DNA of 32,000 bases from positions 1,260,001 through 1,292,000 of the forward strand of contig NZ_CP021983.2 in NCBI RefSeq assembly GCF_002075285.3, given 5' to 3'. This stretch comes from Halomicronema hongdechloris C2206. Its GTDB lineage: Bacteria > Cyanobacteriota > Cyanobacteriia > Phormidesmidales > Phormidesmidaceae. Below are positions 9,538-31,093 of the stretch, one piece after another. The notes below the pieces were generated by a model, which was given only the letters and a program-made list of their open reading frames with translations, searched no databases and was not told the origin of the DNA. A program made the translations under genes and the position numbers. Position 1 is the first letter of the stretch. Each line of letters opens with the position of its first letter.

Positions 9538-9666
9538 TTCTTAACGCTCATAACTAGCTGCTGGCAAGCATTTTGGAAGCTGGACTAGTACACCGCGGCA
9601 CCATCCCGCACCCATCTGTAATGATCAGAATTTTATTTTTTTTCAACCCTGACCTATATAGAAAAA

Positions 9667-9795
9667 CCCCTACACACCCTACACAACTCCTACACTGCTT
9701 AGGTTTCAGCCCTACACGCATCCCTACACGGTTTTTCCCAACCCCTACACACCCTACACAACTCCTACACTACTTAGGTTTCAGCCCTACACGCA
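9667..9795 (+). repeat. CTACAC repeat array (9 copies) organised as two 54-bp near-identical units 75 bp apart; candidate arm-type integrase/Xis sites
   Basis: Units at 9667-9720 and 9742-9795 (CCCCTACACACCCTACACAACTCCTACACT[G/A]CTTAGGTTTCAGCCCTACACGCA). Same motif in inverse orientation at 29708-29814. Confidence 0.7.
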
Positions 9796-10185
9796 CGGCA
9801 AACCTACCGGCACATCTGATGGATGGTTGCTCAACATGCTCAACAAATACTCAACAACATGGCGTTTCAATGATTCTCGCTATCATTTGGGCAGAGCAGG
9901 GGTTGGCTATTCGACCGTCAGGGATTGGGTTGCTATTGGCGAGGGGAGGCATTCAACCCGAAGAAGAACTGGAGAGTATGCGGAGTTTGCGGACCCACAG
10001 AGCGCGATCGCACCCTGCAGGAATGCCGGGCACTGCTCCAGCATCTCTACCGCCAGAGCTACAGCGCCAAACGGCTGAGGATGGCTAGGGATGCGCTCAC
10101 AGCCATCAGCCAATACAAGCCACCACGGCAGCACCAGCGCAACTGAGCAGCTAAGTACAATTGACCTAACGGGAGTATCCGAACT

Positions 10186-10425
10186 ATGAACCCAGCACTA
10201 GCCGCAAAATTCCTGTACGGCACCGAACCGCTCACCGGGGCCGAATATAACGATCTGACGGCTAACCCTGAGATGGCCCGGCTGCTGAGCCAGGCGCGGG
10301 AACTACGTCCCCAGGCGCAACCGCCAGCACAGCCCCAGCCAGCCCCACAGCAGCAGTACACCTCAGAGCAACTGCAGCAGATGGATCAAACCGAGCTGGC
10401 TGCGATCGCGTTTAAGAGTAATTAG
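10186..10425 (+). CDS. hypothetical small protein (Q/P-rich linker)
   Basis: ATG start preceded by GGGAG. 79 aa. First of four same-strand, closely spaced small genes. No recognisable domain. Confidence 0.5.
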   Translation: MNPALAAKFLYGTEPLTGAEYNDLTANPEMARLLSQARELRPQAQPPAQPQPAPQQQYTSEQLQQMDQTELAAIAFKSN

Positions 10426-10436
10426 GAGCCCTGGGA

Positions 10437-10844
10437 TTGAGGCGCACGATGGCGCAAAATGGCGACAATTTAACGCCTAAACAGCTGGCCGCGGTGGCAG
10501 AGTTGGCCCGAGGCAGCAGCCACCAGGCCACCGTGGACGCCACCGGCGTGAGCCATCGGCAGCTGAGCAGGTGGAAAGCTCAGCCCGATTTTAAGGAGGC
10601 CATCCTGGAGGCTCAGAGGGCGATCTATGGGCAGTCCATCGCGGCAATAGTGACCGCCATGAATACAGCCACCACCACACTGGTGGAGATATGCGAAAAC
10701 CAGGAGGCCTCAGATGCCTCAAGAGTAAGCGCCGCCAGGAGCATCCTGGAGAACGGCCTCAAGGCCTTTGGCCAAGCTGACTTGGATCGCCGCGTGGAAG
10801 AAATCGAGGAGCTATTCAAAAGTGAATCTGCTGAAACGACTTGA
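10437..10844 (+). CDS. HTH DNA-binding protein (phage/plasmid small-terminase-like or regulator-like HTH)
   Basis: LTPKQLAAVAELARGSSHQATVDATGVSHRQLSRWKAQPDFKEAI is a classic N-terminal HTH of small phage/plasmid proteins. The probable ATG start is 10449. Confidence 0.6.
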   Translation: MRRTMAQNGDNLTPKQLAAVAELARGSSHQATVDATGVSHRQLSRWKAQPDFKEAILEAQRAIYGQSIAAIVTAMNTATTTLVEICENQEASDASRVSAARSILENGLKAFGQADLDRRVEEIEELFKSESAETT

Positions 10845-10998
10845 ACGGCTGCAGCAGCAGGCGGCTATTAACCGGCTGCCATCCATGAGTGATGCTGAGC
10901 TGGAGGAGCTGGTGGGCCATGACGAGATCGGCCAAAAGCTCAAGAGCTGCAGCGATTTTGAATTGCAGAGAATAGCCAGGTCAGGCAAGTGGAATTAA
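10822..10998 (+). CDS. hypothetical small protein
   Basis: In-frame GTG at 10822 (VNLLKRLERLQQQ...) overlaps the stop of the upstream gene. The ORF-track version starts at 10768. No domain recognised. Confidence 0.4.
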   Translation: MNLLKRLERLQQQAAINRLPSMSDAELEELVGHDEIGQKLKSCSDFELQRIARSGKWN

Positions 10999-11303
10999 CT
11001 ACGCGGATCGAGCAATTGCGCCAGCTAAAGGCAGCCTCCAGGCGTAAACGTGAGGCCATGGCCACCGGCGATCGCGAACGTATCCAGCAGGCAATACGGG
11101 TATTAAGGGCACAGCTACCCATAGCCCCGGTGAGGTCCGTGGAATCGGCAGCAGTGGCCATGGCTCAGCTAATGAGGTTAGAGAGGGAACTGTACCCCCA
11201 TAATGCTGATGAGGTGGCAGAGCTGGCGGTGAGGTATGGTGTCGACCCAGGTGAATTTATCCAGGTGCTCCAGGAAAAGTGGCACGAAAAAAAGGGTTTT
11301 TAA
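10989..11303 (+). CDS. hypothetical coiled-coil protein
   Basis: 104-aa ORF overlapping the previous stop. Helical, charged sequence. No domain recognised. Confidence 0.45.
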   Translation: MELTTRIEQLRQLKAASRRKREAMATGDRERIQQAIRVLRAQLPIAPVRSVESAAVAMAQLMRLERELYPHNADEVAELAVRYGVDPGEFIQVLQEKWHEKKGF

Positions 11304-11450
11304 GGCTGGCTGAGCTGACCTGAGCTGTCTTGTCACGATCAACCGCTGAAAGCATTGTCCTATAGCTATCGTGGCGTTTTTACGGTCGGCAGAGTTGACC
11401 TGAAAATACTAACAAATCACAACATTTTGACCCCTGAAAATGAGGGTTTT

Positions 11451-11996
11451 TCAAGCCTCAGGCTGTTTACCGCTTACCCGCTTCCATGCTGCAGCTGGAG
11501 CCATCCCGCGCCGGTATTCCACCCATGAGCTGAGTAAGGCCTCCCGCGCCATGCTGGCCATCTGTACCTTGGGATTGCCATGGACCATCGTGAACAGAAC
11601 CCGATAGTGATCACCGCCAATCTCTTTGAGGAGATCAATCGTTTGGACCAGCGCATCCACGGCCATGGCCTCAGGAGTGGTAGGCAGTATCAGCAGGTCG
11701 CACCCTTCCACCAGTGGCTCCAAGTCCTCCCGCGATGGCCGCGCGCCGGTGTCGATCACCACGTGCTTAAACTTTGGGATATGCCTAAAGGCAGCATCCA
11801 CGGCCACCACCTTAAACGGCAGCTCACCGCGCTTACTCCAGGAGGTGGCGCTCCTGTTTTCATCCCCATCCACCAGGAGGACACTCTCACCACCGTCCAG
11901 GCCAGCTAGAAACGCGGCCAAGTGGATGGTACTGGTGGTTTTGCCCACTCCTCCCTCGAAGGAGCTGACGGTTAAAAACATTGGATTACACCTCAC
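11451..11996 (-). CDS. ParA/Soj-family ATPase, small, with atypical Walker A (FEGGVGKTT)
   Basis: MFLTVSSFEGGVGKTTSTIHLAAFLA...VLLVDGDENRS...VVIDTGARPS...LLILPTTPE match the ParA deviant Walker A, A' and B layout. The likely start is 11981. The signature Lys is replaced by Glu. Confidence 0.75.
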   Translation of the reverse strand: MRCNPMFLTVSSFEGGVGKTTSTIHLAAFLAGLDGGESVLLVDGDENRSATSWSKRGELPFKVVAVDAAFRHIPKFKHVVIDTGARPSREDLEPLVEGCDLLILPTTPEAMAVDALVQTIDLLKEIGGDHYRVLFTMVHGNPKVQMASMAREALLSSWVEYRRGMAPAAAWKRVSGKQPEA

Positions 11997-12352
11997 CTAT
12001 GCCGGATACGGTAAGCCAGCGTGGTGGCCTGGTCAATTGGTGCCAAGTCAGCTTGGTCAATTAGTCAAAGGCTTTGAGTATCACCTGGGTAAAATATTCA
12101 AGAGTCTTAAGTCAATAATCCGGAAAGTTTTAGCACCGAAGCTGTAAGGCTTACAGGGCAGGCACTCTAAAAATTGCCTATTTAAACCAATATCAGCTTT
12201 CGGGCTAACTTGGATCTAAATAGCTCGAACTACGTAGGCTCTGGCTTACAGCCAATGGAGAGGGCAGAATTTTGTCCGGAGTATTGTTAAGTTCAATCCT
12301 GATGCGTCTTTTCAGAATAGAATGATCAATCAGTCTATGAGCGATTAGTAAT

Positions 12353-13015
12353 ATGTCTAAGTCAAATAAGGTTCTTATTATTGGCGCTTCTGTAGCGCTT
12401 GGAGTTATTGCTGTTGTTGCCTTAGGTGTTGGTTGGATGCAGTTTGTCTCGTTTAGGAACGAGCAAGCGGAAAGAGCAGAAGCTGAGGAGCGAGAAGCCC
12501 GTCAGGAGGCGCTTAATGCTATATCAGCAGAGTGTCGAGATTTAAGGAGAATTGTGAATCAGACAGGAGATTTTATGCAAGAGTTTGAAGCTGAGATTCA
12601 AGTCTTTAGTGACAATGCTTCTCAAGTTGAAACACTTCAAGATATTAAGTCTGCTGCGACTGAATATACGGATGCAGTCGATACGGTAGTTGTCAGGCTG
12701 GATGGATTAACAAGTGAATTAGAGTCAAAAACTTATCAAGATGAGACTCTAAAAGGTTTTCAATCTGAATATACCAAAGTAGTTAAAGGTTTTAGAACTT
12801 CTTTGCTTGAGGCCGGTCAGGCAATGAATATCATTATCTCAACTCCATCAGAGGCAGAACTTCCAAGTAGGATAGATAAGTCTCAAGAGCAAACAATGGC
12901 AGCCGTATCTTCGATAGAGGAGCTTTCTAATACCGAAGACAAACTAATATCTGATGTGAACGCTTACTGCGAAGAAACTAATATAGAAAGAAACGAATTA
13001 CAAACTACTAATTAA
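12353..13015 (+). CDS. membrane-anchored coiled-coil protein, unknown function
   Basis: N-terminal TM helix (VLIIGASVALGVIAVVALGVGW) then a charged helical region. AT-rich codon usage unlike its surroundings. Confidence 0.6.
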   Translation: MSKSNKVLIIGASVALGVIAVVALGVGWMQFVSFRNEQAERAEAEEREARQEALNAISAECRDLRRIVNQTGDFMQEFEAEIQVFSDNASQVETLQDIKSAATEYTDAVDTVVVRLDGLTSELESKTYQDETLKGFQSEYTKVVKGFRTSLLEAGQAMNIIISTPSEAELPSRIDKSQEQTMAAVSSIEELSNTEDKLISDVNAYCEETNIERNELQTTN

Positions 13016-13440
13016 GCTACCAAGTGGAGGCCGCTGGAGTCCTGAGGATTGGCCTTGAGGTAATTAGAGGTAACCGCCAGAGATGAGTGTCCTAAGGTCT
13101 GTTTTACCAAGTCAAGATCAGTGGACTTGGCCAGCGCCTCCAGCTCCACCTGGCTCCTGAGAAAGGCGGCATATTCATCCACCGCGCCAGTATCACCCGG
13201 TGATAGGCCGATGTCTCCCTGATACTGGAGCTGCAGAAATGAGCGGTAGTGGCTAAGGTCACGGCCATAAGCCGCGCGCGTGTTGGCTGAGTTCTTTCCC
13301 TTGTAGTCCAGGAACTCAGCCACCAGCTCATCTTCACTCCACAGCTGAGAGCGGTCTATGGTTGCCATCGCAGTGGCGATCCTCATGGCCTCACTGAATA
13401 CCTCAGGATCGAAAACAGTTGTATTGGCTAAACTGGTCAT
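13012..13440 (-). pseudogene. internally deleted tyrosine recombinase remnant
   Basis: The N-terminal core-binding/SAM-like motif (NTRAAYGRDLSHYRSFL) is joined directly to the extreme C-terminal motif (LVKQTLGHSSLAVTSNYL, His plus catalytic Tyr). The segment that should hold the Arg/His-x-x-Arg catalytic residues is absent. Confidence 0.65.
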
Positions 13441-13575
13441 GGATTAAACCTCATATAGCAAGCCTAACCGAATTTAGAATGAGAATCGCTTACAAAGCCT
13501 ATAGTCTATGGAATGCTGTTCGAAATTCAACTGTGATTGCTATAGCCCACGTCAGGAGCCTCTCACCTTTCCCTG

Positions 13576-14388
13576 GTGTGGGCTAATATGTTGAGCGGAA
13601 CTATCGGCATAATCATTATCATGAAGTCCCCTAAACTTTTGATTGCCAGTTGCTCTCTATTGATGCTGGCTTTAACTTCTTGTGGTCTCGTCCCTTTTAG
13701 TAAAACCTCTTCATCTCAGGAAACACCAGCAGCTGTTGCAGAAGAGGCATCAAGTGATGAAGATCAGCCAATAGACGATTCCTTTGGAGAAGCTGTCAAT
13801 ACAGCTATGGCAGCCGCAGAAGCCGCGCAAACTGCGCAAACTGCTGATGAATGGGGCAATGTGGCCGAGCTGTGGACCAAAGCGATTGAGCTGATGAAGG
13901 CTGTTCCAGAGTCGAGCGAGAATTATCAGACGGCTCAGCAGAAGGTTGAAGAATATCAGAGAAACGTAGATTACGCAGCAGATGCTGCTTTCGCTGAGAA
14001 AAAAGTCTCTTCAAAATACAGTGAAATTCACCGCTTTTATGGCCAGCCGTTGATGAACGTTGCAGAGAACTTTGGGGCTTCACTTGCTCAGAGTGGTGAC
14101 CGCTTCACCAGTGAGGATGAAACAGCCGAGTTTTATGCAGAAAGTAGCAATGGTGAATCGATTAGTTATGTCGAAGTAGGTGTAAAGTCACTCGGCCCAT
14201 GTCAACCCAATGAAGCTATTGGACTTAGTAAGACGATAATGGCTCTCGGTGACGTACCTTCCACAAACAAAGTCCGGGAAACGGAATCATCAGGGTATGT
14301 AACTTATCGGGTAGAAGGTTTAACGGTCAAAACCTCATGTTTGTATGATGGCGACTGGTACACAATAAGTGTGTCAGCTGATGATTAA
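13576..14388 (+). CDS. lipoprotein, unknown function
   Basis: Probable start is 13621 (MKSPKLLIASCSLLMLALTSCG, a lipobox LTSC). AT-rich. Contains a W..A...W..AI.LM..VP..S..Y..AQ.KV..Y helical motif. Confidence 0.65.
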   Translation: MWANMLSGTIGIIIIMKSPKLLIASCSLLMLALTSCGLVPFSKTSSSQETPAAVAEEASSDEDQPIDDSFGEAVNTAMAAAEAAQTAQTADEWGNVAELWTKAIELMKAVPESSENYQTAQQKVEEYQRNVDYAADAAFAEKKVSSKYSEIHRFYGQPLMNVAENFGASLAQSGDRFTSEDETAEFYAESSNGESISYVEVGVKSLGPCQPNEAIGLSKTIMALGDVPSTNKVRETESSGYVTYRVEGLTVKTSCLYDGDWYTISVSADD

Positions 14389-14715
14389 GGCTTAACGGTT
14401 CTATGGGTGCGGTCATGACCAGCGGCAACCGTCTGCACTTTGGTGTCTTGCCGCCCCCTGGTAAGGCGGTGCTCTAGATAGCCCAGCCCTGTTCCTCTGA
14501 ACGCACGGCTAAAGCGCCTCCATCCAGCAAGACACCACTAAACAAAGCTGAGATAGATGCGTGGGAGAGGGCATACGGGCAATAGACGTTAGTTCATCTG
14601 GGTTGAGAGCTACATCTTGCCAATATGAAAGCCCTTATAAAGATTTTGTGAGCATCATGGCAACTTCTCTGGCTTCAATAAAGAGTTAGGTAGGCTTGTA
14701 AAAGCTTGTATTCTT

Positions 14716-15279
14716 TTGAAGTCTGTTCTAATGAAATCTTCGATTATCCCAGCCTCTCTCTTTTTGACTGTTGCCGTTATAGGATCTTCCGCGCCTGGGA
14801 TTGCCCAAGTTTGTTATGAGGATGGGAGTGGCAACGTAGTTGATTTAGGGGGGCTTTGCGATAGTTATGAAGACCGCAGCAGCTCTTCTAGCCAGGCACC
14901 TGAGCCTTCATCTAATAGCGCTCCATACGGGAATAGCTTTGTATATGATTCATCTCAAACACCTTTCCCGTCGTATCTGTTTGATAGCGATTTAGATAAC
15001 GAGGATGCTCATCAAACAGACCAGGTGAGCTATGGGAATAGCGCGCTATTTGTTTATGAAAATCGGTACATAGAAGATTTCTCGCAGTGGCCTTATACAG
15101 CCAGTGCTACCAATCATGCTGAATGGAGCTATATAGACTGTAGGACAGGCTGGAGAGGTCTTAAGTCTTCCCCTATGGCTGGTACATCACGGACGTTCTT
15201 TATCCCCCCAAGCCAGACAGAACGGCCTGATCTCTATCGCAATATTTGTAGAGAGGCAGGGCTATCCCCTCAGTTTTGA
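14716..15279 (+). CDS. secreted protein, unknown function
   Basis: Signal peptide (probable start 14731, MKSSIIPASLFLTVAVIGSSAPGIAQV). Ser-rich linker. Several Cys. No recognisable domain. Confidence 0.55.
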   Translation: MKSVLMKSSIIPASLFLTVAVIGSSAPGIAQVCYEDGSGNVVDLGGLCDSYEDRSSSSSQAPEPSSNSAPYGNSFVYDSSQTPFPSYLFDSDLDNEDAHQTDQVSYGNSALFVYENRYIEDFSQWPYTASATNHAEWSYIDCRTGWRGLKSSPMAGTSRTFFIPPSQTERPDLYRNICREAGLSPQF

Positions 15280-15320
15280 AAAATCGCATCAGCTAGGGCG
15301 CGGCTAACCATCGTCGTTGT

Positions 15321-15572
15321 TCAGGCGGCGACGCTCGACTTTCCCAAGCGGCGATCCAGATCCTTCACCTGCTCCGACAGCGCTGCGATCGCATCGGCCA
15401 GCGTTTCACCCTGGCTCTCAACCAGCCCGTCGAGCTTGCCATCGAGATAGTCGTAGACCAGTGACTTAAGGACGGCAGAGGCGTTGCTATTGCGACTCTT
15501 GGCCCGTGCCTTGAACTGGTGCCAGGTGTCCTTATCAATCTTAAATGTCGCCAGAATGGTCTCATCAGCCAT
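15321..15572 (-). CDS. ribbon-helix-helix (CopG/Arc/MetJ-type) protein
   Basis: ILATFKIDKDTWHQFKARAKSRNSNASAVLKSLVYDYL fits the beta-strand/helix/helix RHH pattern. Lies immediately downstream of the recombinase gene. Confidence 0.7.
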   Translation of the reverse strand: MADETILATFKIDKDTWHQFKARAKSRNSNASAVLKSLVYDYLDGKLDGLVESQGETLADAIAALSEQVKDLDRRLGKSSVAA

Positions 15573-15582
15573 GGCTGTCGCC

Positions 15583-15610: not shown

Positions 15611-15612
15611 CA

Positions 15613-16311
15613 TTAAGACCAGAGCCCCTTAAACTGGGTGGGACTCATGGCGGTGTAGTGGGCCGTATGGCGGATGTTGGCGTGGCCCAGCCAGGCTTGG
15701 ATTGTGCGGGTATCGACGCCCTTATTCGCCAGGTAATAGCCGCAGCTATGGCGAAGCATGTGGGCATGGATGGGAAAACGGAATAGACCCTTGCCGGTGC
15801 GCTTGATCATGGCTGAAATCGCACTGCTGGCCAGGGGAGCCCCGGTGCTGCTGCAGAATATAAAAGGACTGTCGGCGTTTTCCCGTTCCAGCCGTCGCAG
15901 CCCCCTCAGCTCATCCCCCTCTAGGTAATGGGTGGAGTCGTGAGAGCCCTTGAGCCGACGGATCAAGATAGTGCCCTGCTGAAAATCCACATCAGCCCAG
16001 CGCAGATCGGCTATTTCTGAGACCCTGAGCCCGTGCCGATAGCCCATCAGCACAATCATGTGGTTGCGGTGACCGTTGCGGGCCGTGCGCTTAGCCGCCG
16101 TCAACAGCTGGTCTATTTCAGCCGGGGTCAGATACTCGCGCGTCCGCCCCGTCGCCTCGTGGCCTTTGTTAGGACTGGTGCCTGCCTTGGCCAACCGAGG
16201 GCGGACACCAGGGAAGGGCAGCACTGAGCCCTTTTGTTCAACTTTCGGTTCTTGGGCGTCTAGATTCATGGTGGCTCGATCTCCTGTCGCAGCGATACTG
16301 GGCGGGGCCAT
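15613..16311 (-). CDS. small tyrosine recombinase (FimB/FimE-like size, catalytic domain only)
   Basis: Catalytic signature present: GLRVSEIADLRWADV (Arg), HAHMLRHSCGYYL (His-x-x-Arg), WLGHANIRHTAHYT (His...Tyr). No separate arm-binding domain. Confidence 0.85.
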   Translation of the reverse strand: MAPPSIAATGDRATMNLDAQEPKVEQKGSVLPFPGVRPRLAKAGTSPNKGHEATGRTREYLTPAEIDQLLTAAKRTARNGHRNHMIVLMGYRHGLRVSEIADLRWADVDFQQGTILIRRLKGSHDSTHYLEGDELRGLRRLERENADSPFIFCSSTGAPLASSAISAMIKRTGKGLFRFPIHAHMLRHSCGYYLANKGVDTRTIQAWLGHANIRHTAHYTAMSPTQFKGLWS

Positions 16312-17468: not shown

Positions 17469-17627
17469 TCTCGCAAAGTCACTCCCCCCCGCAGGTCGGG
17501 GGCGGGCAAGTCATGAGCAAGCCTGGGGCAAGTCAGGTCCACTCCCCCCCGCAGGTCGGGGGCGGGGGCGCAGTACGGGCTCAACACAGGCTCACAAAAC
17601 ACACTCCCCCCGCAGGTCGGGGGCGGG
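17420..17627. repeat. CRISPR-like mini-array / GC-hairpin repeat array (3 conserved + 1 degenerate repeat)
   Basis: CACTCCCCCC(C)GCAGGTCGGGGGCGGG at 17480-17506, 17540-17566 and 17602-17627. Degenerate hairpin CCCCCGTGCGGGGG at 17422-17437. Period 58-62 bp. The intervening ~33-42 bp segments are mutually unrelated. No cas genes in the window. Confidence 0.5.
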
Positions 17628-17666
17628 GGTTAGGTCCGCGATATTGCGGATATTGCGGACCTAACC
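17628..17666 (-). terminator. strong hairpin (12-bp perfect stem, 15-nt loop) after the long operon
   Basis: GGTTAGGTCCGC-GATATTGCGGATATT-GCGGACCTAACC, 13 nt beyond the stop of the 81-aa gene. No clear U-tract, so the terminator role is inferred. Confidence 0.45.
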
Positions 17667-17936: not shown

Positions 17937-18251
17937 TTACTCCATTACGCCCCGGTGTTTACCCGGGTCAGCGGTCTGCAGCTTGCAGCACCAACAGAGC
18001 CGTGGTGCGTTCTTTTGTGCCTTCAGTGCTCGCTCAAAATCCCTCCCCATATTTGGCCAGGTGCAGACGACATCGAACTCAATACCGCGCTCATGAGCCA
18101 CAGCACAGAAGCGACTCCCTCGCCCCTTACGGTGTTGTTTAATCCGCTTGTCGATGTCAGTTGCGTAGCCGATATAATGCCTCGCTCGATTCGGTGTGGA
18201 AGGATCGAGCGGCTGCCTGAAGTGCAACAGGTAACAGCCCCTCATCATCAA
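17937..18251 (-). CDS. GIY-YIG domain nuclease-like protein
   Basis: CYLLHF...ARHYIGYATDIDKRIKQHRKGRGSRF...ERGIEFDVV...FERALK... fits the GIY...YIG...R...E layout. C-terminal CWCC. The start ATG overlaps the stop of the upstream micro-ORF. Confidence 0.65.
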   Translation of the reverse strand: MMMRGCYLLHFRQPLDPSTPNRARHYIGYATDIDKRIKQHRKGRGSRFCAVAHERGIEFDVVCTWPNMGRDFERALKAQKNAPRLCWCCKLQTADPGKHRGVME

Positions 18252-18440: not shown

Positions 18441-18617
18441 TCAAAACTGGGGGGCGCTCATCTGCAGCAAACTAGGCGCTTCAGCCTCGAAGTTTGAGAT
18501 CGCAGCTCCCCGCGTTGGGTGACCGTCTTCGCTGCAGAAGTCCTCGGTCTCCCAGTGCCAACCGTGGCCGGGAATCTCGTAGACCTGCAGCTGGTCTCTC
18601 AGTTCATCGATCGTCAT
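18441..18617 (-). CDS. micro-ORF (58 aa), below ORF-track cutoff
   Basis: Hand translation: MTIDELRDQLQVYEIPGHGWHWETEDFCSEDGHPTRGAAISNFEAEAPSLLQMSAPQF*. Its ATG overlaps the last 14 nt of the hydrolase gene. Confidence 0.45.
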   Translation of the reverse strand: MTIDELRDQLQVYEIPGHGWHWETEDFCSEDGHPTRGAAISNFEAEAPSLLQMSAPQF

Positions 18618-23716: not shown

Positions 23717-23947
23717 TTAGAGCGTTACGTCGGCCCAGTCTCCCGATAGGGCAACCCCATCAGAGTCGGGCATTGACGCGGTCGGCGCTGGGGGCGTAGG
23801 TGCGTTCCCGGCAGGGGCACCACAGATGTAGTCCTGAGCGATGAGTGTCTGCATGTAGACGTCGACAGGAACCCCAGCAGCTGCAGCCCGTTCGGCAATC
23901 AATTGGGCATATTCGGCAGACAAGTAGAAGCGTTGTTTCATCTCCAT
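23717..23947 (-). CDS. small RHH-like protein (ParR/ParG-like adaptor candidate)
   Basis: KQRFYLSAEYAQLIAERAAAAGVPVDVYMQTLIAQ fits strand-helix-helix. Lies 12 nt downstream of the actin-like ATPase gene. Confidence 0.5.
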   Translation of the reverse strand: MEMKQRFYLSAEYAQLIAERAAAAGVPVDVYMQTLIAQDYICGAPAGNAPTPPAPTASMPDSDGVALSGDWADVTL

Positions 23948-25030: not shown

Positions 25031-25074
25031 CCGTTCTCCACCTGTGATAGCATGAGGTCGCTACGGTTCGCAAC
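25022..25074. promoter_or_regulatory. two direct GGTTCGCAAC(C/T)GT repeats 43 bp apart in the divergent control region
   Basis: Copies at 25022-25031 and 25065-25074, between the actin-like ATPase gene (-) and the RHH gene (+). Candidate centromere (parC-like) or operator. Confidence 0.4.
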
Positions 25075-25101
25075 TGTAATGAACGATTTCTAACTGTACA
25101 G

Positions 25102-25323
25102 ATGAGGAATTACCCTATGAATGAAGCGTTGCTAGGCGATGTGCCAACTAAGAAGCCCAAGGTATCAGTGGTGATGGATGAGTCTCTCAAGGCTGCTTTA
25201 GAAAAGTGGGCAGAGAAGGAAAGCCGCACTGTCTCCAACCTTTGCGAGCTGATACTGAAGGGTGCTGCTCGAGACGCTGGATATCTGGACGCTAGTGGCG
25301 ACGACGAGGAAGGAAATGACTGA
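25102..25323 (+). CDS. ribbon-helix-helix (CopG-family) protein
   Basis: KVSVVMDESLKAALEKWAEKESRTVSNLCELILKGA is a textbook RHH. Acidic tail. Confidence 0.75.
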   Translation: MRNYPMNEALLGDVPTKKPKVSVVMDESLKAALEKWAEKESRTVSNLCELILKGAARDAGYLDASGDDEEGND

Positions 25324-25525
25324 CCCTAGAGCGCGCACCACAAGCCATTGGGCCGTCAGCGAGGAATGCTGCAAGCAGATGGCCAGAAAATATGGTTGGA
25401 CCTTGCGAGAGGCGAGGCGACGACTGGAGGCCAATGATCCATTAACTTGGGAGTGCATCTATTCTGGTGATGCCGAATTTCCTAAAAGCGCCATGGACTA
25501 TTCAGGAGGGGCAGACGATGACTAG
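25316..25525 (+). CDS. hypothetical small protein (69 aa)
   Basis: ATG at 25316 overlaps the RHH stop (MTDPRARTTSHWAVSEECCKQMARKYGW...). The track ORF 25262..25525 has the same frame with an upstream alternative start. Confidence 0.45.
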   Translation: MTDPRARTTSHWAVSEECCKQMARKYGWTLREARRRLEANDPLTWECIYSGDAEFPKSAMDYSGGADDD

Positions 25526-25961
25526 GCAAATCCTTTTCTATCCTGAAGCTGGGTACAGCAGTTTGCCTGACTGGCAATATGGCCATCATGCTGGCGATTC
25601 GGAAAGCGTTACTACCCTGCTGCGTGAATACTATGACGGCGCTGGGAATGAGCCCATCAGCGTAGGACACCGGCCCTTCGACTTCAAACGTGATAACGAC
25701 GCGGCAACATTCGATCATCGTGGTGGCGTTACCCACCGACGGCTATCGCCCTGGCGCGTAACCAAGGTGGATGAGTATGTCGGCAATACCGGGCAAGAGG
25801 ATATGGACGGCATCGTGGTGGCCTACTGCACCTACGACCCTCTGCCCGAAGAGCAGAACCCTTGGGTTGAAGTCGAGCCCGCGATTGTCTCTGTCGAGTC
25901 CTTCGACGGCGATAGGGCCGCCTACGAGGCCTGGAAGAAAACGCAGGTCGTGACAGCCTGA
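25518..25961 (+). CDS. hypothetical protein (147 aa)
   Basis: ATG at 25518 with AGGAGGGG upstream, overlapping the previous stop. No domain recognised. Confidence 0.5.
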   Translation: MTRQILFYPEAGYSSLPDWQYGHHAGDSESVTTLLREYYDGAGNEPISVGHRPFDFKRDNDAATFDHRGGVTHRRLSPWRVTKVDEYVGNTGQEDMDGIVVAYCTYDPLPEEQNPWVEVEPAIVSVESFDGDRAAYEAWKKTQVVTA

Positions 25962-26102
25962 ATTAACCGACTACTCAGATCTGGGTAGTCTGGAGAGCTC
26001 CCCACCGATGCCGACCAGGGGGAGAGAGTTGGGCTATGCCTTCAGCAAGGAAACGGCTTCCAACTGGGTAAAACCAGGGGCAGCAGAACTTTCAGGCAAT
26101 TC

Positions 26103-26143
26103 GTGACAGGTTTTGCACAGGCTTTGTACAGGGGTGTGCACAG
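26103..26143. promoter_or_regulatory. four helically phased TG(N)ACAG(G) repeats (about 11-bp period)
   Basis: GTGACAGG, TGCACAGG, TGTACAGG and TGCACAG start at about 26103, 26114, 26125 and 26137. Iteron/operator-like, upstream of the RHH-primase module. Confidence 0.45.
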
Positions 26144-26204
26144 TTTTACCACAATGTCGGGAAGCCTTTAATAGATAGCATCTCAGCGCATTTTCCTGGT
26201 TTTG

Positions 26205-26256
26205 TGTACTAAAAATAGAACATTTATAGAACATTTTTTGTACTAAAAATAGAACA
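26205..26256. repeat. AT-rich direct repeats TGTACTAAAAATAGAACA x2 (34-bp period) plus extra ATAGAACA
   Basis: Exact 18-mers at 26205-26222 and 26239-26256. ATAGAACA at 26226-26233. This is the most AT-rich patch of the GC-rich part of the element. Confidence 0.6.
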
Positions 26257-26340
26257 CGGAACACCTGGTGCGCATCGGTTTTAGCGATCCAAATCGCAAA
26301 TTTTGCGCTATGGTATGTTCGTATTGCAGGGGTTGGTGAG

Positions 26341-26493
26341 ATGGCAAAACCCGTTATTAGTTTTCGTCTGCCGGATTCGTTAATTGACCAGGTGCGATCG
26401 CATTCGCAGATTTCGGGATGTACCCGAACGGATTTGGTGATCACCGCTCTGCGAGAATACCTGGCCAAAAAACAACCCCCGGTCGCGAGTTGA
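26341..26493 (+). CDS. ribbon-helix-helix protein (50 aa), below ORF-track cutoff
   Basis: Hand translation: MAKPVISFRLPDSLIDQVRSHSQISGCTRTDLVITALREYLAKKQPPVAS*. Classic RHH pattern, immediately upstream of the primase gene. Confidence 0.65.
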   Translation: MAKPVISFRLPDSLIDQVRSHSQISGCTRTDLVITALREYLAKKQPPVAS

Positions 26494-26558
26494 GCGGCGG
26501 GGGTTCGCATTTAAAGCAAAAACACTGACCCGGCAGCCAGTGTTTGAGGAGTTAAAAA

Positions 26559-26730
26559 ATGTCGTACCAAAATGATAGCGCATTTTTGCGTGACGAACAC
26601 CGCCAGCACTTCATTGATGAGGGGTGGAGCGACGCTGAGATCGAGCAGGCGATCGCCTGGGGTGTCCATTCAATCGACCGGGATGAGGCGGCCCAGCAAC
26701 TAGGCTACACACCCCCCGTCTGGCGGCATC
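26559..26730 (+). pseudogene. N-terminal fragment of the primase-helicase, in a different frame from the main ORF
   Basis: MSYQNDSAFLRDEHRQHFIDEGWSDAEIEQAIAWGVHSIDRDEAAQQLGY... looks like the usual N-terminus of DUF3854-type primases. The rest of this track ORF (to 27002) looks like out-of-frame noise. The main frame is open from 26687. Confidence 0.55.
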
Positions 26731-26761
26731 TGGTTCCCCACACAGCGATAAATGGGGGCAG

Positions 26762-29167
26762 TTGCGACCTGATAACCGCCACTGGACGGATGGGCAGGAA
26801 TCGCCAAAATATTGCAGCCCGCGCGGCGATATTGACCGGCAGGCACTGTGGGTGCCACCCGGTGCAACGCTTAGCGACCTGGCCGCCGTCACCGAGGGGT
26901 GGAAGGACGCGGCGATCGCCACCATCCGCACCGGGCGGCCCGTTGGTGCAATTGCGGGGGTTTCCCATATCGCCAAAACGCTGCCTGCAGGTGTTGGGGT
27001 AACAACCGTTTTTGACAGCGATGGCCTGACCAACGCCAACGTCATGCAGGCCCTGATCAGGGGGGGGCTGCACCTGGGCGGCAAAATTACGCTCATCCCT
27101 CGGGATATTGGGGAGAAATGTGGGGCCACTGAATTTTTTGGCAGTGGCCGGACACAGTCTGATTTTGACCAATTGTTGGCGGGCGCGCGAAACCCCCGAG
27201 CGTTTTTCCTGCAATGGTTGGGGTATCTCAGCGATGCTCCCCTGCCCAAAAACTGCGACACGCTGACGGCCCTGTATCAGCGGCTGTGGCGGATCGCCTG
27301 GCATCTCGACAGAGACTGCCATGAACTGCGGAGTCGGGTTGAGGCGTTCATCCAGGCCCATTCTCGGGCCAATGGCGTCAAATTGAATAAACCCGATGTG
27401 CGAGCCATTCGCAGTGCGGCCACAAAACCACTCTGGGAGCGGGAATCGCAACGGCAACTGGCAGAGCGCAGGGCGGCGGCGACAACTCAAACAGATTCAT
27501 CCTGGACTGTCAAACGCTGTTTCGATGATGCGATCACCCTCACCCCCGACGGGGTCCGACTGCCTCCAACGGGCAAATTGGCGGCCCTGATGGAGCAGAG
27601 CTGGTCGAAACATTTGAAATGGCGGCTCGATTTTTCCAGTTTTTATGCATACGGCAGGACGACACCTGGGCTGTGGGAGCGGGTCAGCGATCGCGAGGTG
27701 AAGGAACTCGTGCAGCGGGAGCTAGATGCTGCTGGAACTGATGGGGAATATGGTTTGACCGTGGTTGATAATACTGTGGCCCTGTTGAGCCAACGGGTCT
27801 CGGTGCGGCAGCTGCCACAGGCCCACGGCTACATTCCATTCCGCAATGGGGTGTTGCGGGTTTCGGACAGGACCCTGCTGGAGCACAGTCCTGACTACGG
27901 GTTCACCTGGCAATTGCCCTATGATTACATCCCCGGGGCAGAGTGTGGCCCGGTTGTGGACTGGCTGGGGTGGGCGGTGAACGGAGACAAAACAGTTGTC
28001 CAACTCATTCGCGCCTGTCTCAAAGCGATGATTTTGGGACGTACAGATTTTCAGCGTTATCTCGAAATCGTTGGGCCTGGTGGAACAGGGAAGGGCGTGT
28101 TAATTCGTCTAATTCAGGCCCTGCTGGGGAGGTCGAACACCGTCAGTACCTCTCTATCACGCATCGCCAACAGTAGGTTTGAGACAGGGCGATTCATGGG
28201 GAAACGATTGATTTTCATCCCTGATGCGGACTACAACCCCACGGCCGTCGACACGCTCAAACAATTGACCGGTGAGGATTTTATTCCGTGGGAGCGCAAA
28301 AACGAGAACTCTGATTATTGCGATGGGTTCACCCTGGAGGGGTGGGTGATGGTGGCGACCAACAGGGAAATTGTTGCCAGCGATCATACGAATGCACTAT
28401 TCCGGAGGCGAATTCCAATCTATTTCAACCACGTGGTTCCTGATGGCGAGCGGCGGGATCTAATTAGTTTTTGCCCCGATGGCAGTCTACGAGGCGAGTT
28501 TGCCGACCTCCTGCCGGGGGTGTTCAACTGGGTGCTCGACATGCCGGATAAATTGATGGAACGGTATATCAAAAACCCGCGAGAGTACGTGCGCTCGATG
28601 GGTGAGTTCCAGGCCGAGACATTACTCGAAACCAACAGTGTGGCGGCATGGGTGGACGAAAATGTTGTTTATCAACCGGGCGAATTTGCAAAAATCGGTG
28701 GCAAAAACAACCCCGCAGACAGCTGTCTATACCCGAACTATGTGGCATGGTGCGAGGCTACGGGCAGCAAGACCGTGGGTCTCAGGACATTTGTGAAAGA
28801 CTTCAAAAATTTGTTTTGTAATGAATTGGGGTTGGATGTCTCGAAACGGCGCGATCGGAACCGAGGCTCTGGGTTTGACAATATTCGCCTGCGGATTTGT
28901 GGGGGCGATGGGGAGCCCCGAGAGGATGAGCCCTGCACGGTTGAGCGGGCATTGGGCGGCTCAACCCAAAACGATACCAACGGTGATGGCGATGGCATTT
29001 CATTGTCGAAACAGGATTTAAAACAACTTCTAAACCTCTATTCTGATGACCCACCAGTTTTTGAATCCGAGCTGCAGCGATTGTCAGGGCTGCAACGGGA
29101 TCATCTCTACCAGGAGTTGCCTGAACTCAGGCCCATGGCGGGGGAGGTGAATGGGCATGTTAGGTGA
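26762..29167 (+). CDS. replicative primase-helicase: Toprim-like (DUF3854-type) domain + D5_N-like + P4/D5-type SF3 helicase
   Basis: QLRPDN...KYCSPRG, then VTEGWKDAAI...GVTTVFDSDG (Toprim-like). Then YIPFRNGVL..., Walker A GPGGTGKGV, Walker B RLIFIPDAD, motif C VMVATN. Confidence 0.8.
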   Translation: MRPDNRHWTDGQESPKYCSPRGDIDRQALWVPPGATLSDLAAVTEGWKDAAIATIRTGRPVGAIAGVSHIAKTLPAGVGVTTVFDSDGLTNANVMQALIRGGLHLGGKITLIPRDIGEKCGATEFFGSGRTQSDFDQLLAGARNPRAFFLQWLGYLSDAPLPKNCDTLTALYQRLWRIAWHLDRDCHELRSRVEAFIQAHSRANGVKLNKPDVRAIRSAATKPLWERESQRQLAERRAAATTQTDSSWTVKRCFDDAITLTPDGVRLPPTGKLAALMEQSWSKHLKWRLDFSSFYAYGRTTPGLWERVSDREVKELVQRELDAAGTDGEYGLTVVDNTVALLSQRVSVRQLPQAHGYIPFRNGVLRVSDRTLLEHSPDYGFTWQLPYDYIPGAECGPVVDWLGWAVNGDKTVVQLIRACLKAMILGRTDFQRYLEIVGPGGTGKGVLIRLIQALLGRSNTVSTSLSRIANSRFETGRFMGKRLIFIPDADYNPTAVDTLKQLTGEDFIPWERKNENSDYCDGFTLEGWVMVATNREIVASDHTNALFRRRIPIYFNHVVPDGERRDLISFCPDGSLRGEFADLLPGVFNWVLDMPDKLMERYIKNPREYVRSMGEFQAETLLETNSVAAWVDENVVYQPGEFAKIGGKNNPADSCLYPNYVAWCEATGSKTVGLRTFVKDFKNLFCNELGLDVSKRRDRNRGSGFDNIRLRICGGDGEPREDEPCTVERALGGSTQNDTNGDGDGISLSKQDLKQLLNLYSDDPPVFESELQRLSGLQRDHLYQELPELRPMAGEVNGHVR

Positions 29168-29423
29168 GAGCGAGTTGAGAGATTTGGTGATCATCTGCAA
29201 AGCGGCACTCGTGGGGGGCCAGGATTCTCTATCAGACCTGTTCAGTCTGCTGGGCTACCTCACCCAGGAGGACAAGCGGCAGTTTTGGCAATGGCTGAAA
29301 ACCAATGACGAGCTGTTGGTTACCCGCCTGAAACGGGCGAAACAGCGCCTAGAGGCTAATCCGCCACAGCCACAGCCACAGTCCTGGTATTCAGATCGCC
29401 TGAAGCGGGCAAGGGGGATGTAG
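29151..29423 (+). CDS. hypothetical protein (90 aa)
   Basis: ORF overlapping the primase stop. No domain recognised. Confidence 0.45.
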   Translation: MGMLGESELRDLVIICKAALVGGQDSLSDLFSLLGYLTQEDKRQFWQWLKTNDELLVTRLKRAKQRLEANPPQPQPQSWYSDRLKRARGM

Positions 29424-29699
29424 ATGCAGATGACCCTGCTGACCACTGATGAGGCGTGTGAACTCCTGCGCTGTAAGCCAGACTCCCTTAAGACCCTGCG
29501 CGATAGCTGGATTCACGGCGTCCACTACGTTAAACGCGGTCGCGGCCCCACGGCCCCAGTGCTCTACAACCGAGAATTGATTCTCGACTGGCTGGTCAAC
29601 CAGGATGCTCCCGAAACCCACCAGGCTGCAATCGAACACTTCAGACGCAGCCTGCCCAGTGGCCAAAAACGAACCATTTCACGAAAACCGAAAGGCTGA
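29424..29699 (+). CDS. xis: excisionase / AlpA-type HTH (MerR-like HTH_17) protein
   Basis: LLTTDEACELLRCKPDSLKTLRDSWIHGVHYVKRGRGPTAPVLYNRELILDWL matches the Xis/AlpA helix-turn-helix pattern. Adjacent to the arm-type repeats and the integrase. Confidence 0.7.
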   Translation: MQMTLLTTDEACELLRCKPDSLKTLRDSWIHGVHYVKRGRGPTAPVLYNRELILDWLVNQDAPETHQAAIEHFRRSLPSGQKRTISRKPKG

Positions 29700-29707
29700 C
29701 CCCCTTG

Positions 29708-29814
29708 CTGTGTAGGGGTGTGTAGGGGTCCTGTGTAGGGGGCAATCTCAACCCCTACACGCTGAAACCCTTGCTGTGTGGGGCTTGTGTAGGGCGTGTA
29801 GGGGTGTGTAGGGG
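29708..29814 (-). repeat. GTGTAGG(GG) repeat array (6 good + 1 degenerate copy, plus one CCCCTACAC in the opposite sense); candidate arm-type sites
   Basis: GTGTAGGGG at 29710, 29720, 29733, 29796 and 29806. GTGTAGGG at 29787. CCCCTACAC at 29752. This is the inverse complement of the motif at 9667-9795, and the GGTTTCAGC neighbour motif is also shared in inverse orientation. Confidence 0.7.
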
Positions 29815-29853
29815 TTATCCCTATACTCATAGGGGACACGCAAAAAAAAATAT

Positions 29854-30951
29854 TTAGAACAGGTTCGGTGTTTCTGGATGACTTTTGATGAGGCCGGCAT
29901 AGTTTTCGTAGAGTGTTTTGACGTTATGGCCCGTGATTGCGGCAACCTCTACCGGGTTCATGCCAGACGCTAGGGCATGGCTCACAAACGTGTGGCGGGT
30001 GTGATAGGCCGACCGATACTCTATGCCAGCGGCGGCCAGCACCTTAGCCCATCCCCGAGCACTGAAATTCTTGGCGTCCATCGGTCCCCCCTCTGGAGCC
30101 GGGAACACCAGATCGTCGCCCTCGACGCCTGCAGACATTCGCGATCGCAACATCTCAGCCAGGGAAGCACTCAGCTTCACTTCCCTGGGTTTCTTGGTTT
30201 TGGTGTCCTTAAACTCTCCATGGCTGTAGGCTTCACCAAGCCAGACCACGGTGCAATCTTCATTCAGGTGGCGCCACCGGAGCCCATTTACCTCCCCAGT
30301 TCGGCATCCCGTCGCAAACTTGAACTGGACATAGTCGGCATAGTGGCAATAGTAGGGAGAGTCCCTGAACCCTTGAATGATTCGTTTGACCTCATCCCTG
30401 CTGAATGCTCTAGGCTTCTGCTTTGGCGACTTGCGGATTGTCAATTCTGACCAGGGGTTAGCCGTCACCAATTCCTGCTCTATGCCCCAATCCCATGCAG
30501 CCTTGAGCAGGCCCAACCGCTCAAACACTGTGGACGGCTCTAGGTTTTCCATAAGCCATTGCAGGAAGTCGTCAGCAGTGTCTTCGCTCCCCACAGCACC
30601 GTCGCCAAAATATTCTCGAAGCCAGGTCACCAGGCCGTAGTACTTCTCTAAGGTGCGAGCCTGGACCCGCTTCGCTTTCCACTCAATGAACCGCTCGAAC
30701 AAGTCAACAGCGGTTATGATCTGCGGTTGCTGGCTGGGGTCTGTGCGGTATTTCCCCAACGTTGCGTCAAAGTTATTGGAGAGCATATCCAGCCGAATTT
30801 CTGAGGCCCGGCGCTTTGCAACCTCAACGTTGATCGGGTCATACCGTAACCCAAGGCTGAGGTAGTAGCGCTTCCCATGGTGGCGCCACCGGAGCTGTAT
30901 CCATCCCTCTTTGTTCGCGATCGCAACTTCGCCTTTAGGTGTCCTGGGCAT
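29854..30951 (-). CDS. int: tyrosine integrase with N-terminal Arm-type DNA-binding domain
   Basis: N-terminus KGEVAIANKEGWIQLRWRHHGKRYYLSLGL (Arm-binding, DUF3596-like). Catalytic ATGCRTGEVNGLRWRHL (Arg), AYHTRHTF (His-x-x-Arg), ITGHNVKTLYENY (His...Tyr). Lies 144 bp from the tRNA 3' end. Confidence 0.9.
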   Translation of the reverse strand: MPRTPKGEVAIANKEGWIQLRWRHHGKRYYLSLGLRYDPINVEVAKRRASEIRLDMLSNNFDATLGKYRTDPSQQPQIITAVDLFERFIEWKAKRVQARTLEKYYGLVTWLREYFGDGAVGSEDTADDFLQWLMENLEPSTVFERLGLLKAAWDWGIEQELVTANPWSELTIRKSPKQKPRAFSRDEVKRIIQGFRDSPYYCHYADYVQFKFATGCRTGEVNGLRWRHLNEDCTVVWLGEAYSHGEFKDTKTKKPREVKLSASLAEMLRSRMSAGVEGDDLVFPAPEGGPMDAKNFSARGWAKVLAAAGIEYRSAYHTRHTFVSHALASGMNPVEVAAITGHNVKTLYENYAGLIKSHPETPNLF

Positions 30952-31093
30952 AATTCACGGCACCATTCCGCACCCATTAAACAGCCAAAAGCCCCATTCT
31001 TTCGTCAAATTCCGGGAAGCTTCCGCACCCATTTCCCCGTTTTGCCAGCCCTATGCAATCGTTGAAATGCCTTGAAGCTACGGGTTTTCAGGG

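Follow-up and report, generated by a model that had tools for sequence, protein, structure and literature searches.

A plasmid-like element integrated at tRNA-Val in Halomicronema hongdechloris C2206 and its conserved five-gene envelope operon, a possible DNA-transfer module

We analysed a 32,000-nt stretch of DNA from the cyanobacterium Halomicronema hongdechloris C2206 (contig NZ_CP021983.2, positions 1,260,001 to 1,292,000; this whole stretch is called the window, and all coordinates without a locus name are counted within it). It holds a 21.6-kb element inserted at a tRNA-Val(GAC) gene, which is very probably an integrated plasmid-like mobile genetic element. The new part of the element is an operon of five adjacent genes (18604–22644, minus strand) encoding a membrane-anchored ATPase of the FtsK/TcpA fold, a peptidoglycan hydrolase and three small proteins, which recurs on plasmids and tRNA-integrated elements of related cyanobacteria and of which full-text searches of open-access papers yielded no description. 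By analogy with known systems its most likely role would be cell-to-cell DNA transfer, a function that we propose tentatively and at somewhat less than an even chance. The backbone of integrase (Int), excisionase (Xis) and primase is not new for the phylum because it is of the same kind as that of the tycheposons and of plasmids with a DUF3854-type replicon. An earlier reading made from the sequence alone (the sequence-only reading) had called the element an unusual type for its phylum; this was overstated for the backbone, given the tycheposons and the commonness of this primase type on small cyanobacterial plasmids. The five-gene operon and the signs of decay described below had been missed by that reading.

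Element boundaries and integration site

The tRNA-Val(GAC) gene was the sole tRNA that ARAGORN found in the window, and it was confirmed with Rfam, the scan of which returned nothing else besides a partial copy of the tRNA at 9497–9556. A direct repeat of 55 nt (9487–9541 and 31094–31148, one mismatch, 54 of 55 positions identical) consists of the 3' part of this gene, and because it matches the tRNA-Val 3' part at both ends, the element spans 9542–31093. Both its coordinates and its tRNA target had been correctly placed by the sequence-only reading. The two ends carry the following features.

9487–9541, minus strand: distal att copy, the displaced 3' part of tRNA-Val, 55 nt (direct repeat; Rfam partial tRNA)
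9665–9795, plus strand: nine CCTACAC motifs in two 56-nt repeats, candidate arm-type integrase sites of one arm (repeat and motif count)
29424–29699, plus strand: excisionase-like helix-turn-helix (HTH) protein of the AlpA/HTH_17 type (HTH_17, excisionase PHROG)
29688–29815, no strand assigned: seven CCTACAC motifs in the xis–int interval, candidate sites of the arm type for the other arm (motif count; position kept in relatives)
29854–30951, minus strand: tyrosine integrase with an arm-binding N-terminal domain (Pfam)
31093–31170, minus strand: tRNA-Val(GAC), the integration target, holding the att copy 31094–31148 (ARAGORN, repeat, Rfam)

The integrase, an intact open reading frame (ORF) adjoining the intact tRNA gene, matched Phage_integrase (5.5e-20) and, at its N-terminus, Arm-DNA-bind_2; both Int and Xis had been named correctly in the sequence-only reading. 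That reading had also proposed a survey for syntenic elements at tRNA-Val, and among the related loci that we collected (designated by L and a number), L013, L018 and L035 carry Int-Xis-primase elements beside tRNA-Val, with integrases 65–69% and excisionases 77–90% identical to those of the window. The heptamer CCTACAC matched 20 times in the window, where 2.6 matches were expected, and 16 of the 20 lie in two clusters just inside the element ends (nine at 9669–9792 and seven at 29710–29812). L013 and L018 likewise have it in the interval of int and xis, where L035 has a CCCTTCAC variant. We infer that the clusters are candidate arm-type integrase sites; ORFs at 9573–10088 overlap the arm-site repeats and were judged spurious. 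A lambda-type tyrosine integrase would have inserted the element into the 3' end of tRNA-Val(GAC), and Int together with Xis, acting via the CCTACAC sites at both ends, would excise it as a 21.6-kb circle.

The five-gene envelope operon

The five genes are listed below in their numbered order, with the number of related loci, of 41 searched, in which a homolog was found.

21997–22644, minus strand: gene 1, bitopic membrane protein of 215 aa, its ectodomain long and helical (transmembrane (TM) prediction; 33 loci)
20687–22000, minus strand: gene 2, P-loop ATPase of 437 aa with two TM helices predicted at the N-terminus, a core of the additional-strand catalytic E (ASCE) type and a small C-terminal helical domain (AlphaFold2, Foldseek; 41 loci)
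20182–20706, minus strand: gene 3, highly conserved protein of 174 aa, its Gly-rich N-terminus disordered and its residues 68–136 forming a helical hairpin (31 loci)
19769–20185, minus strand: gene 4, 138-aa bitopic membrane protein (30 loci)
18604–19812, minus strand: gene 5, peptidoglycan hydrolase with one TM anchor, an M23 endopeptidase domain and a C-terminal domain (Pfam; 31 loci)

The 437-aa protein is the single membrane ATPase that the sequence-only reading had noticed. It matched nothing in Pfam, PHROGs, NCBIfam or PADLOC, and searches of the PDB with the protein and with its family profiles returned generic P-loop matches only. Its relatives numbered 35 in a word-indexed search (all hypothetical proteins, every named one cyanobacterial) and about 500 clusters at 50% identity in an exhaustive profile search, and the motifs NPRxGKG (Walker A), IQPK, hhhDE (Walker B) and SSGETDxR are invariant. 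The AlphaFold2 model (predicted local distance difference test (pLDDT) of 81) comprises helices at residues 3–23 and 53–73, a P-loop core at about 110–330 and a three-helix C-terminal domain; by hydropathy, only the second helix (54–72) was supported as a TM segment. When this model was compared with the PDB by Foldseek, the FtsK motor came first (E 2e-5) and TcpA of plasmid pCW3 was in the top ten, with further matches to FlaH/KaiC, B204 of Sulfolobus turreted icosahedral virus 2 (STIV2), EccC and VirB4. Pfam searches of 46 diverse or distant relatives gave a few weak matches to AAA_10 or FtsK_SpoIIIE, with PF01580 weakly matched in 2 of the 46. By its predicted fold, the ATPase is of the FtsK-HerA class with a coupling-protein-like membrane anchor and stands outside any described family.

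Neither the ATPase nor two divergent relatives had a tblastn match in 50,697 phage records, and IMG/VR contained no relative, for which reason we gave less weight to a role in virus packaging. Longer relatives of about 600 aa occur without the hydrolase on plasmids of Nostocales. We also observed, on three metagenome or metagenome-assembled genome contigs (L003, L026 and L027), an ATPase homolog about 48% identical over the core and no hydrolase operon, together with ERF, a STIV_B116-like gene, a tape-measure protein and neighbouring proteins of about 900 aa; this different type of element is possibly a Leptolyngbyaceae prophage or phage-plasmid.

The hydrolase is conserved in its N-terminal 236 residues, which include the TM segment and the M23 domain, and is variable in its C-terminal domain among orthologs. 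Comparison of the hydrolases of L013 (12220–13347), L002 (12091–13422) and the window showed that this second domain belongs to SLT in the form of 375 aa and to Phage_lysozyme (2e-33) in the L002 protein, while that of the window form, about 165 aa long, has no assignment. A candidate likeness of the latter to lambda lysozyme, suggested by an AEGT...FSYQ motif, was not supported, as it had no Pfam match and no PDB profile match and hhalign gave a probability of 0.4% against a lambda R sequence. The pairing of an endopeptidase with a glycan-cleaving domain is known from conjugation hydrolases. If the operon transfers DNA, the two-TM ATPase would pump it, the M23 hydrolase would make an opening in the peptidoglycan, and the DNA passage would be formed or anchored by the three small membrane proteins, in a mode resembling TraB/Spd of actinomycete integrative conjugative elements (AICEs) or a stripped-down Tcp system and working without relaxase and VirB4.

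Distribution and portability of the operon

We collected 45 related loci, of which the first 41 were covered by tblastn of all element proteins; a homolog of the ATPase was present in all 41. All five operon genes co-occur in about 30 of these 41 loci, and the carriers are Leptolyngbya/Nodosilinea-type cyanobacteria. The operon resides on the Int-Xis-primase elements at tRNA-Val in L013, L018 and L035, on a tRNA-Pro element whose primase is of another kind (DUF3987), at a locus beside tRNA-Arg with an XisA-type recombinase, on plasmid-type loci with ParA and uncharacterised genes, and on CyRepA1 plasmids. One of the latter is the complete 158-kb plasmid of Leptolyngbya sp. BL0902, where it stands beside CyRepA1 and ParAB. 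Several single genomes hold 2–5 copies that are 86–98% identical to each other, and several copies lie on contigs at about 2–2.5 times the chromosomal coverage, as read from the contig names. These multiple copies suggest that the cassette is exchanged among co-resident replicons.

Two genomes stood out in copy number: Leptolyngbya sp. CCNP1308 (L010, L013, L015, L022 and L036) and Nodosilinea sp. AN01ver1 (L016, L018, L025 and L033) hold five and four copies, respectively, with ATPases 88–98% identical on different backbones. A pair of large 'AAA-like domain' proteins (about 620–740 and 1180–1230 aa; L021 13645–19540 and L005 16825–22230) stands next after the operon on a tRNA-Pro element and was also found on a 39-kb Tolypothrix plasmid typed MOBP. 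The named hosts of the ATPase were filamentous cyanobacteria throughout, and plasmids of unicellular cyanobacteria in the same database were matched by the primase but not by the ATPase, which is suggestive of a restriction of the ATPase to filamentous hosts.

Replication and partition genes

The genes below point to plasmid ancestry because relatives of the SF3 part of the primase, of the cassette formed by a ribbon-helix-helix (RHH) protein, ParM and a 73-aa protein, of ParA and of the small recombinase occur on plasmids or plasmid-type loci.

11451–11996, minus strand: ParA-like P-loop ATPase without the conserved C-terminus (CbiA, ParA_partition, PHROG 164; alignment, tblastn)
15613–16311, minus strand: further tyrosine recombinase of the FimB/E invertase type, consisting of the catalytic domain alone (Pfam, NCBIfam)
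23717–23947, minus strand: 76-aa protein in the ParR position, directly downstream of the actin-like gene, without a hidden Markov model (HMM) match (position)
23960–24958/25030, minus strand: ParM/Alp-type actin-like ATPase, probable start 24958 (332 aa) (family profile, PF17989 in homologs)
25102–25323, plus strand: RHH (Arc/CopG-like) regulator, divergent from the ParM-like gene (RHH_5 8e-6; Arc-like PHROG)
25467–25961, plus strand: 164-aa protein kept beside the primase in related integrated elements (55–59% identity in L013, L017, L018 and L030)
26100–26260, no strand assigned: AT-rich repeats, a 23-nt repeat in two copies, ATAGAACATTT in two copies and GGnTTTGnACAG in three copies, candidate origin or operator (repeat search)
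26341–26493, plus strand: 50-aa RHH (CopG/Arc-like) gene with a hairpin directly after it (HMM)
26559–29167, plus strand: primase-helicase with Toprim (DUF3854-like), D5_N and superfamily 3 (SF3) helicase parts and two +1 frameshifts (Pfam, PHROGs, NCBIfam; ortholog alignment)

The main primase-helicase ORF (26762–29167, plus strand) matched D5_N, DUF5906 and the C-terminal domain of P4 primase, primase PHROGs down to 4e-51 and TIGR01613 at 111.4 bits, above the cutoff of 108.7. These matches confirm the Toprim and SF3 primase-helicase of the sequence-only reading, and the AT-rich repeat region that it had placed upstream was likewise recovered. The coding sequence begins in frame 0 at 26559 and passes through a +1 frame ('SGGIWFP') into a +2 frame, that of the 801-aa ORF, within about 40 nt, the shifts being located at a run of six C (26712–26717) and a run of four C (26736–26739) about 25 nt apart. 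Deletion of one base from each run restores an 869-aa ORF that is collinear with the intact 855-aa ortholog of L013, and this ortholog aligns across all three frames. The frameshifts are due either to decay or to homopolymer sequencing error. The closeness of two homopolymer changes in one gene could point to a sequencing artefact. The SF3 part was 33–37% identical to 'DUF3854/P4 primase' proteins of 25–55 kb cyanobacterial plasmids. In our model, the primase-helicase would replicate the excised circle from the AT-rich repeats at 26100–26260.

The actin-like protein alone gave a weak ALP_N match in Pfam (4.8e-4) and ParM 3js6 in the PDB at 0.045. Its homologs (55–65% identical) carry PF17989, and a profile of 15 family sequences matched the ParM structures 3js6 (6.7e-5) and 7x54 (1e-3), so that the ParM-type ATPase of the sequence-only reading stands; the upstream repeats that were claimed with it are modest, amounting to 2–3 copies of the 10-nt GGTTCGCAAC in the intergenic region by the RHH gene, and the small partner is assigned by position only. 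The order of a divergent RHH gene, a ParM-like gene and a gene of about 73 aa recurs in L046 and L047, and in L047 the cassette adjoins a DUF3854+DEAD replicase, which is the domain pair of CyRepA. Judged by gene identity and order, the RHH, ParM-like and 76-aa genes form a putative type II partition cassette with a candidate centromere only, and this cassette would segregate the circle.

The separate ParA-like ATPase was also confirmed by HMMs, with a truncation that had escaped the sequence-only reading: it aligns to its homologs only over residues 1–146 of about 199 and is without the conserved C-terminal stretch of about 50 residues. The FimB/E-type recombinase (Phage_integrase 3.4e-39; NF007370 2.6e-43) has relatives that adjoin ParA on plasmid-type loci, which fits multimer resolution. 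Its likely function is multimer resolution or inversion, and in our model it would resolve multimers of the circle. Four RHH regulators had been claimed, of which two were recovered by HMM (25102–25323 and 26341–26493), whereas the other two (15321–15572 and 23717–23947) are assigned by appearance or position only. A 158-aa ORF at 26034–26510 (minus strand) was judged probably spurious, as it overlaps the real RHH gene at 26341–26493.

Virion, conjugation and other genes

About 35 ORFs were searched against Pfam, PHROGs and NCBIfam, and no capsid, portal, large terminase or tail gene, no relaxase, VirB4 or VirD4, and no match to AAA_10, T4SS-DNA_transf or TraG was found; PADLOC assigned no defence system. 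Where the M23 hydrolase matched tape-measure or endolysin PHROGs, it did so through its peptidase domain. The profile searches that the sequence-only reading had proposed as a check thus brought out neither a standard set of capsid and large terminase genes nor a standard relaxase and type IV secretion system (T4SS) set, and its finding of no relaxase, VirB4 or VirD4 was upheld. Its statement that capsid, portal, large terminase and tail genes are missing holds as well; packaging genes are not strictly absent, because a 135-aa protein (10437–10844) matched terminase-small-subunit (TerS) PHROGs at 3e-7 (PHROG 2538) and 5.5e-4 over most of its length. In Pfam this protein gave a weak HTH_23 match only and no terminase domain, tblastn of it against the 50,697 phage records was negative, and it was unmatched in the related loci, which stop short of that end of the element.

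10437–10844, plus strand: 135-aa HTH protein with weak likeness to terminase small subunits (PHROG 2538; weak HTH_23)
12000–15300, no strand assigned: low-GC island, GC 0.41–0.49 compared with about 0.57, without HIP1 sites (composition, ORFs)
15321–15572, minus strand: 83-aa RHH-like protein without HMM support (appearance; 41% identity to a small gene on the Fischerella plasmid L007)
16422–17468, minus strand: 348-aa protein, the homologs of which are hypothetical proteins on cyanobacterial and other plasmids (homolog searches)
17480–17627, no strand assigned: three copies of the 27-nt G/C hairpin repeat CACTCCCCCCCGCAGGTCGGGGGCGGG at 60–61 nt spacing (repeat search)
17937–18251, minus strand: GIY-YIG-like small nuclease (Pfam GIY-YIG 1.4e-4, just below the cutoff)

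The highly iterated palindrome HIP1 (GCGATCGC) has 25 sites in the window against 0.67 expected, a 37-fold excess, with 17 sites in the element and 8 in the flank. The host flank at 1–9486 is about 60% GC and rich in HIP1, and the site density of the element backbone equals that of the flank; therefore the element appears adapted to cyanobacteria. The HIP1 excess and all the relatives found indicate a host akin to Leptolyngbya/Nodosilinea. A HIP1-free stretch at 11076–15384 covers the low-GC island, which contains three ORFs for secreted or membrane proteins (signal or TM segments; 12353–13015, 13576–14388 and 14716–15279) and a 142-aa tyrosine-integrase fragment (13012–13440, minus strand), and which is probably secondary cargo or the remnant of a later insertion within the element. 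The hairpin repeat at 17480–17627 lies between the 348-aa gene and an 81-aa gene and is adjoined by a 17-nt inverted repeat (17628–17666); no copy of the 27-nt unit was found in any related locus searched.

Possible roles of the element and its operon

The transfer reading of the operon was reached because the set of an ATPase, a wall hydrolase and small membrane proteins matches the logic of TraB/Spd, TcpA/TcpG and ConQ/CwlT, because the operon is exchanged among replicons like a mobility cassette, and because no member of the ATPase family turned up in the virus collections searched. The combined model, in which the element is an integrated plasmid with a transfer operon that dispenses with relaxase and VirB4 and resembles AICEs in its working, remains a tentative one that in our judgement falls just short of an even chance, DNA transfer being its most conjectural step. 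We consider rather unlikely the farther-reaching proposal that the operon is a minimal undescribed DNA-transfer system of filamentous cyanobacteria, consisting of a new branch of FtsK/TcpA/TraB-like translocases and a two-domain hydrolase, carried by plasmids and tRNA-integrated elements as the cyanobacterial counterpart of TraB/Spd, and possibly moving DNA across the septa of filaments.

Several observations weigh against the combined model. By sequence, the searches of Pfam, PHROGs and NCBIfam placed no operon component in a conjugation family, and a set of five small proteins looks insufficient for passage across a diderm envelope. The Foldseek TM-scores of the ATPase were about 0.3, with comparable values for the RecA-like KaiC/FlaH, in BFVD it matched best an uncharacterised protein of a Nodularia phage, with FtsK-HerA packaging ATPases coming next, and the three contigs with ATPase homologs but no hydrolase carry tail-like genes (tape measure, ERF). 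The AlphaFold2 prediction for the 174-aa partner (pLDDT 61) gave a helical hairpin only and no usable model, and the C-terminal domain of the window hydrolase found no match in Pfam or by profile in the PDB. As the primase is frameshifted and ParA is truncated, the present copy may no longer be able to replicate on its own. The circular attP junction (CTACGGGTTTTCAGGG-core-TAACGCTCATAACTAG) was not found in metagenomes, which is a weak test, since the source population is probably unsampled there.

Among the alternatives, we regard as the least improbable, although still unlikely, an integrated plasmid without self-transfer that spreads by transformation, vesicles or mobilisation by other elements and whose operon serves lysis or vesicle release, entry exclusion or septal peptidoglycan remodelling. 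In its favour, no relaxase, VirB4 or oriT-like feature was found, and ATPase homologs occur without the hydrolase in other contexts, including phage-like contigs; that co-resident replicons each keep their own copy of the operon fits exclusion or incompatibility as well. Movement in vesicles has been proposed for tycheposons (bioRxiv 10.1101/2020.12.28.424599). Nevertheless, the combination of a membrane-anchored FtsK/TcpA-fold ATPase and a two-domain hydrolase is that of known DNA-transfer systems (Guglielmini et al., PMC3548315), the operon moves between unrelated backbones like a mobility module, and no match of a holin/endolysin type or to a defence system was found.

A phage satellite of the P4 type, of the phage-inducible chromosomal island (PICI) type or of the type of PICI-like tycheposons is distinctly less probable. 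Such a satellite would excise and replicate when a helper phage infects the cell and would be packaged into the capsids of the helper, the packaging being redirected by the TerS-like protein. Int, the AlpA-type Xis, a P4-family primase and the weak TerS-like match, on which or on part of which the sequence-only reading had based its P4 alternative, do agree with it, and the TerS-like gene lies at the end far from int, as does terS in islands of the SaPI (Staphylococcus aureus pathogenicity island) type. Moreover, PICI-like tycheposons bearing terS exist in cyanobacteria (bioRxiv 10.1101/2020.12.28.424599). On the other hand, PHROGs and Pfam revealed no Psu, Sid, Delta, Epsilon, capsid or capsid-remodelling match, the TerS-like protein is without a Pfam terminase match or a tblastn match in phages and is unmatched in the related loci as far as these extend, 21.6 kb exceeds the size of typical PICIs or P4, and the ParM/ParA genes and the envelope operon are traits of plasmids that real plasmids also have. 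Least probable of all, and very unlikely, is a provirus, defective or unrecognised, of a tailless virus that contains a membrane and the genome of which an FtsK-HerA-type ATPase would package. The ATPase fold does match B204 of STIV2 and the packaging ATPases of nucleocytoplasmic large DNA viruses, virophages and corticoviruses, and the element encodes several small membrane proteins and a lytic enzyme; but nothing resembling a capsid protein, jelly-roll or otherwise, was detected, neither IMG/VR nor the phage isolates contain the ATPase family, the N-terminal two-TM anchor of the ATPase resembles that of type IV coupling proteins rather than the compact soluble packaging form, and plasmids as large as 158 kb and above carry the operon.

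How genes pass naturally between cyanobacteria, transfer by phage apart, is poorly understood. Should the operon move DNA, this would account for the spread of many 'non-mobilizable' cyanobacterial plasmids and islands, show how conjugation in the style of a double-stranded DNA pump could work in a diderm phylum, and offer a small portable cassette with which filamentous cyanobacteria, Leptolyngbya BL0902 for example, could be engineered. Otherwise, the element is still a well-delimited example of plasmid-chromosome exchange that adds tRNA-Val integrative plasmids to the tycheposon-type backbone.

Comparison with known systems

With P4-type satellites and PICIs the element shares Int, an AlpA-type excisionase, a P4-family primase-helicase and a possible small terminase, but it has no Psu/Sid/Delta/Eps or capsid-morphogenesis genes, is larger, and carries partition genes and a membrane operon. 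The proposed role also recalls the 'transjugation' of ICETh1 in Thermus thermophilus, likewise a diderm, in which TdtA, a single membrane-associated ATPase of the FtsK/HerA type encoded by an integrative element, exports DNA with no T4SS involved and the recipient takes it up by its competence system. The partner genes of TdtA differ from those of the element.

The sequence-only reading had compared the element with AICEs, and this stands as a functional analogy (a two-TM FtsK/TcpA-fold ATPase, an operon with a hydrolase, occurrence on plasmids) but not as membership, given the lack of FtsK_SpoIIIE and of Spd, Pif and Kor and the wrong phylum. Of the systems compared, AICEs would be the nearest in mode of working, and they are alike in their size of 10–25 kb, tRNA target, Int-Xis with an autonomous replication gene, one membrane-associated FtsK-like ATPase, small membrane proteins, the absence of relaxase and VirB4, and hosts that grow as filaments. 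The element differs in that its ATPase is not PF01580/TraB by sequence, any likeness being one of fold only, its ORFs have no Spd, Pif (NUDIX) or Kor (GntR) match in Pfam, its replication gene is a Toprim/SF3 primase-helicase rather than RepSA/RepAM, its host is a diderm cyanobacterium, and its operon has a dedicated peptidoglycan hydrolase. Target repeats resembling the clt of AICEs were not identified in the element, although the ATPase has a C-terminal helical domain. TraB homologs have been reported only in Actinobacteria and TcpA homologs only in Firmicutes, and MPF_C, which is defined by VirB4 and was experimentally unstudied as of 2012, is the only cyanobacteria-specific conjugation type on record (PMC3548315).

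The Tcp system of Clostridium perfringens pCW3 (TcpA, TcpG), to which ICEBs1 and Tn916 are related, likewise has an ATPase with two N-terminal helices and an FtsK-like core, as seen in the AlphaFold2 model here, paired with a membrane-associated two-domain peptidoglycan hydrolase. The likeness is at the fold level only, with 12–13% identity to TcpA chains and a TM-score of about 0.3, and the element has no counterpart of the VirB4-like TcpF, the VirB6-like TcpH or the relaxase (TcpM/MOBT).

Tycheposons of Prochlorococcus are tRNA-integrated Int-Xis-primase elements, some of which carry terS or a major capsid protein gene (Hackl et al., bioRxiv 10.1101/2020.12.28.424599). They are like the element in being cyanobacterial and tRNA-integrated and in having a tyrosine recombinase, an excisionase, a primase/helicase, cargo and, in some, terS. 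Their hosts are marine picocyanobacteria, in contrast to the filamentous high-GC cyanobacteria here, and ParM/ParA and an envelope operon are not among the hallmark genes given in that study. CyRepA is a plasmid Rep of cyanobacteria (PMC10079941), and compared with CyRepA1 and CyRepA2 plasmids the element is chromosomal via Int/Xis and has a helicase of the P4/D5 SF3 type rather than DEXDc; in both, however, the Rep combines a Toprim-like N-terminal domain with a helicase, and ParA, ParM cassettes and the five-gene operon are common to the two.

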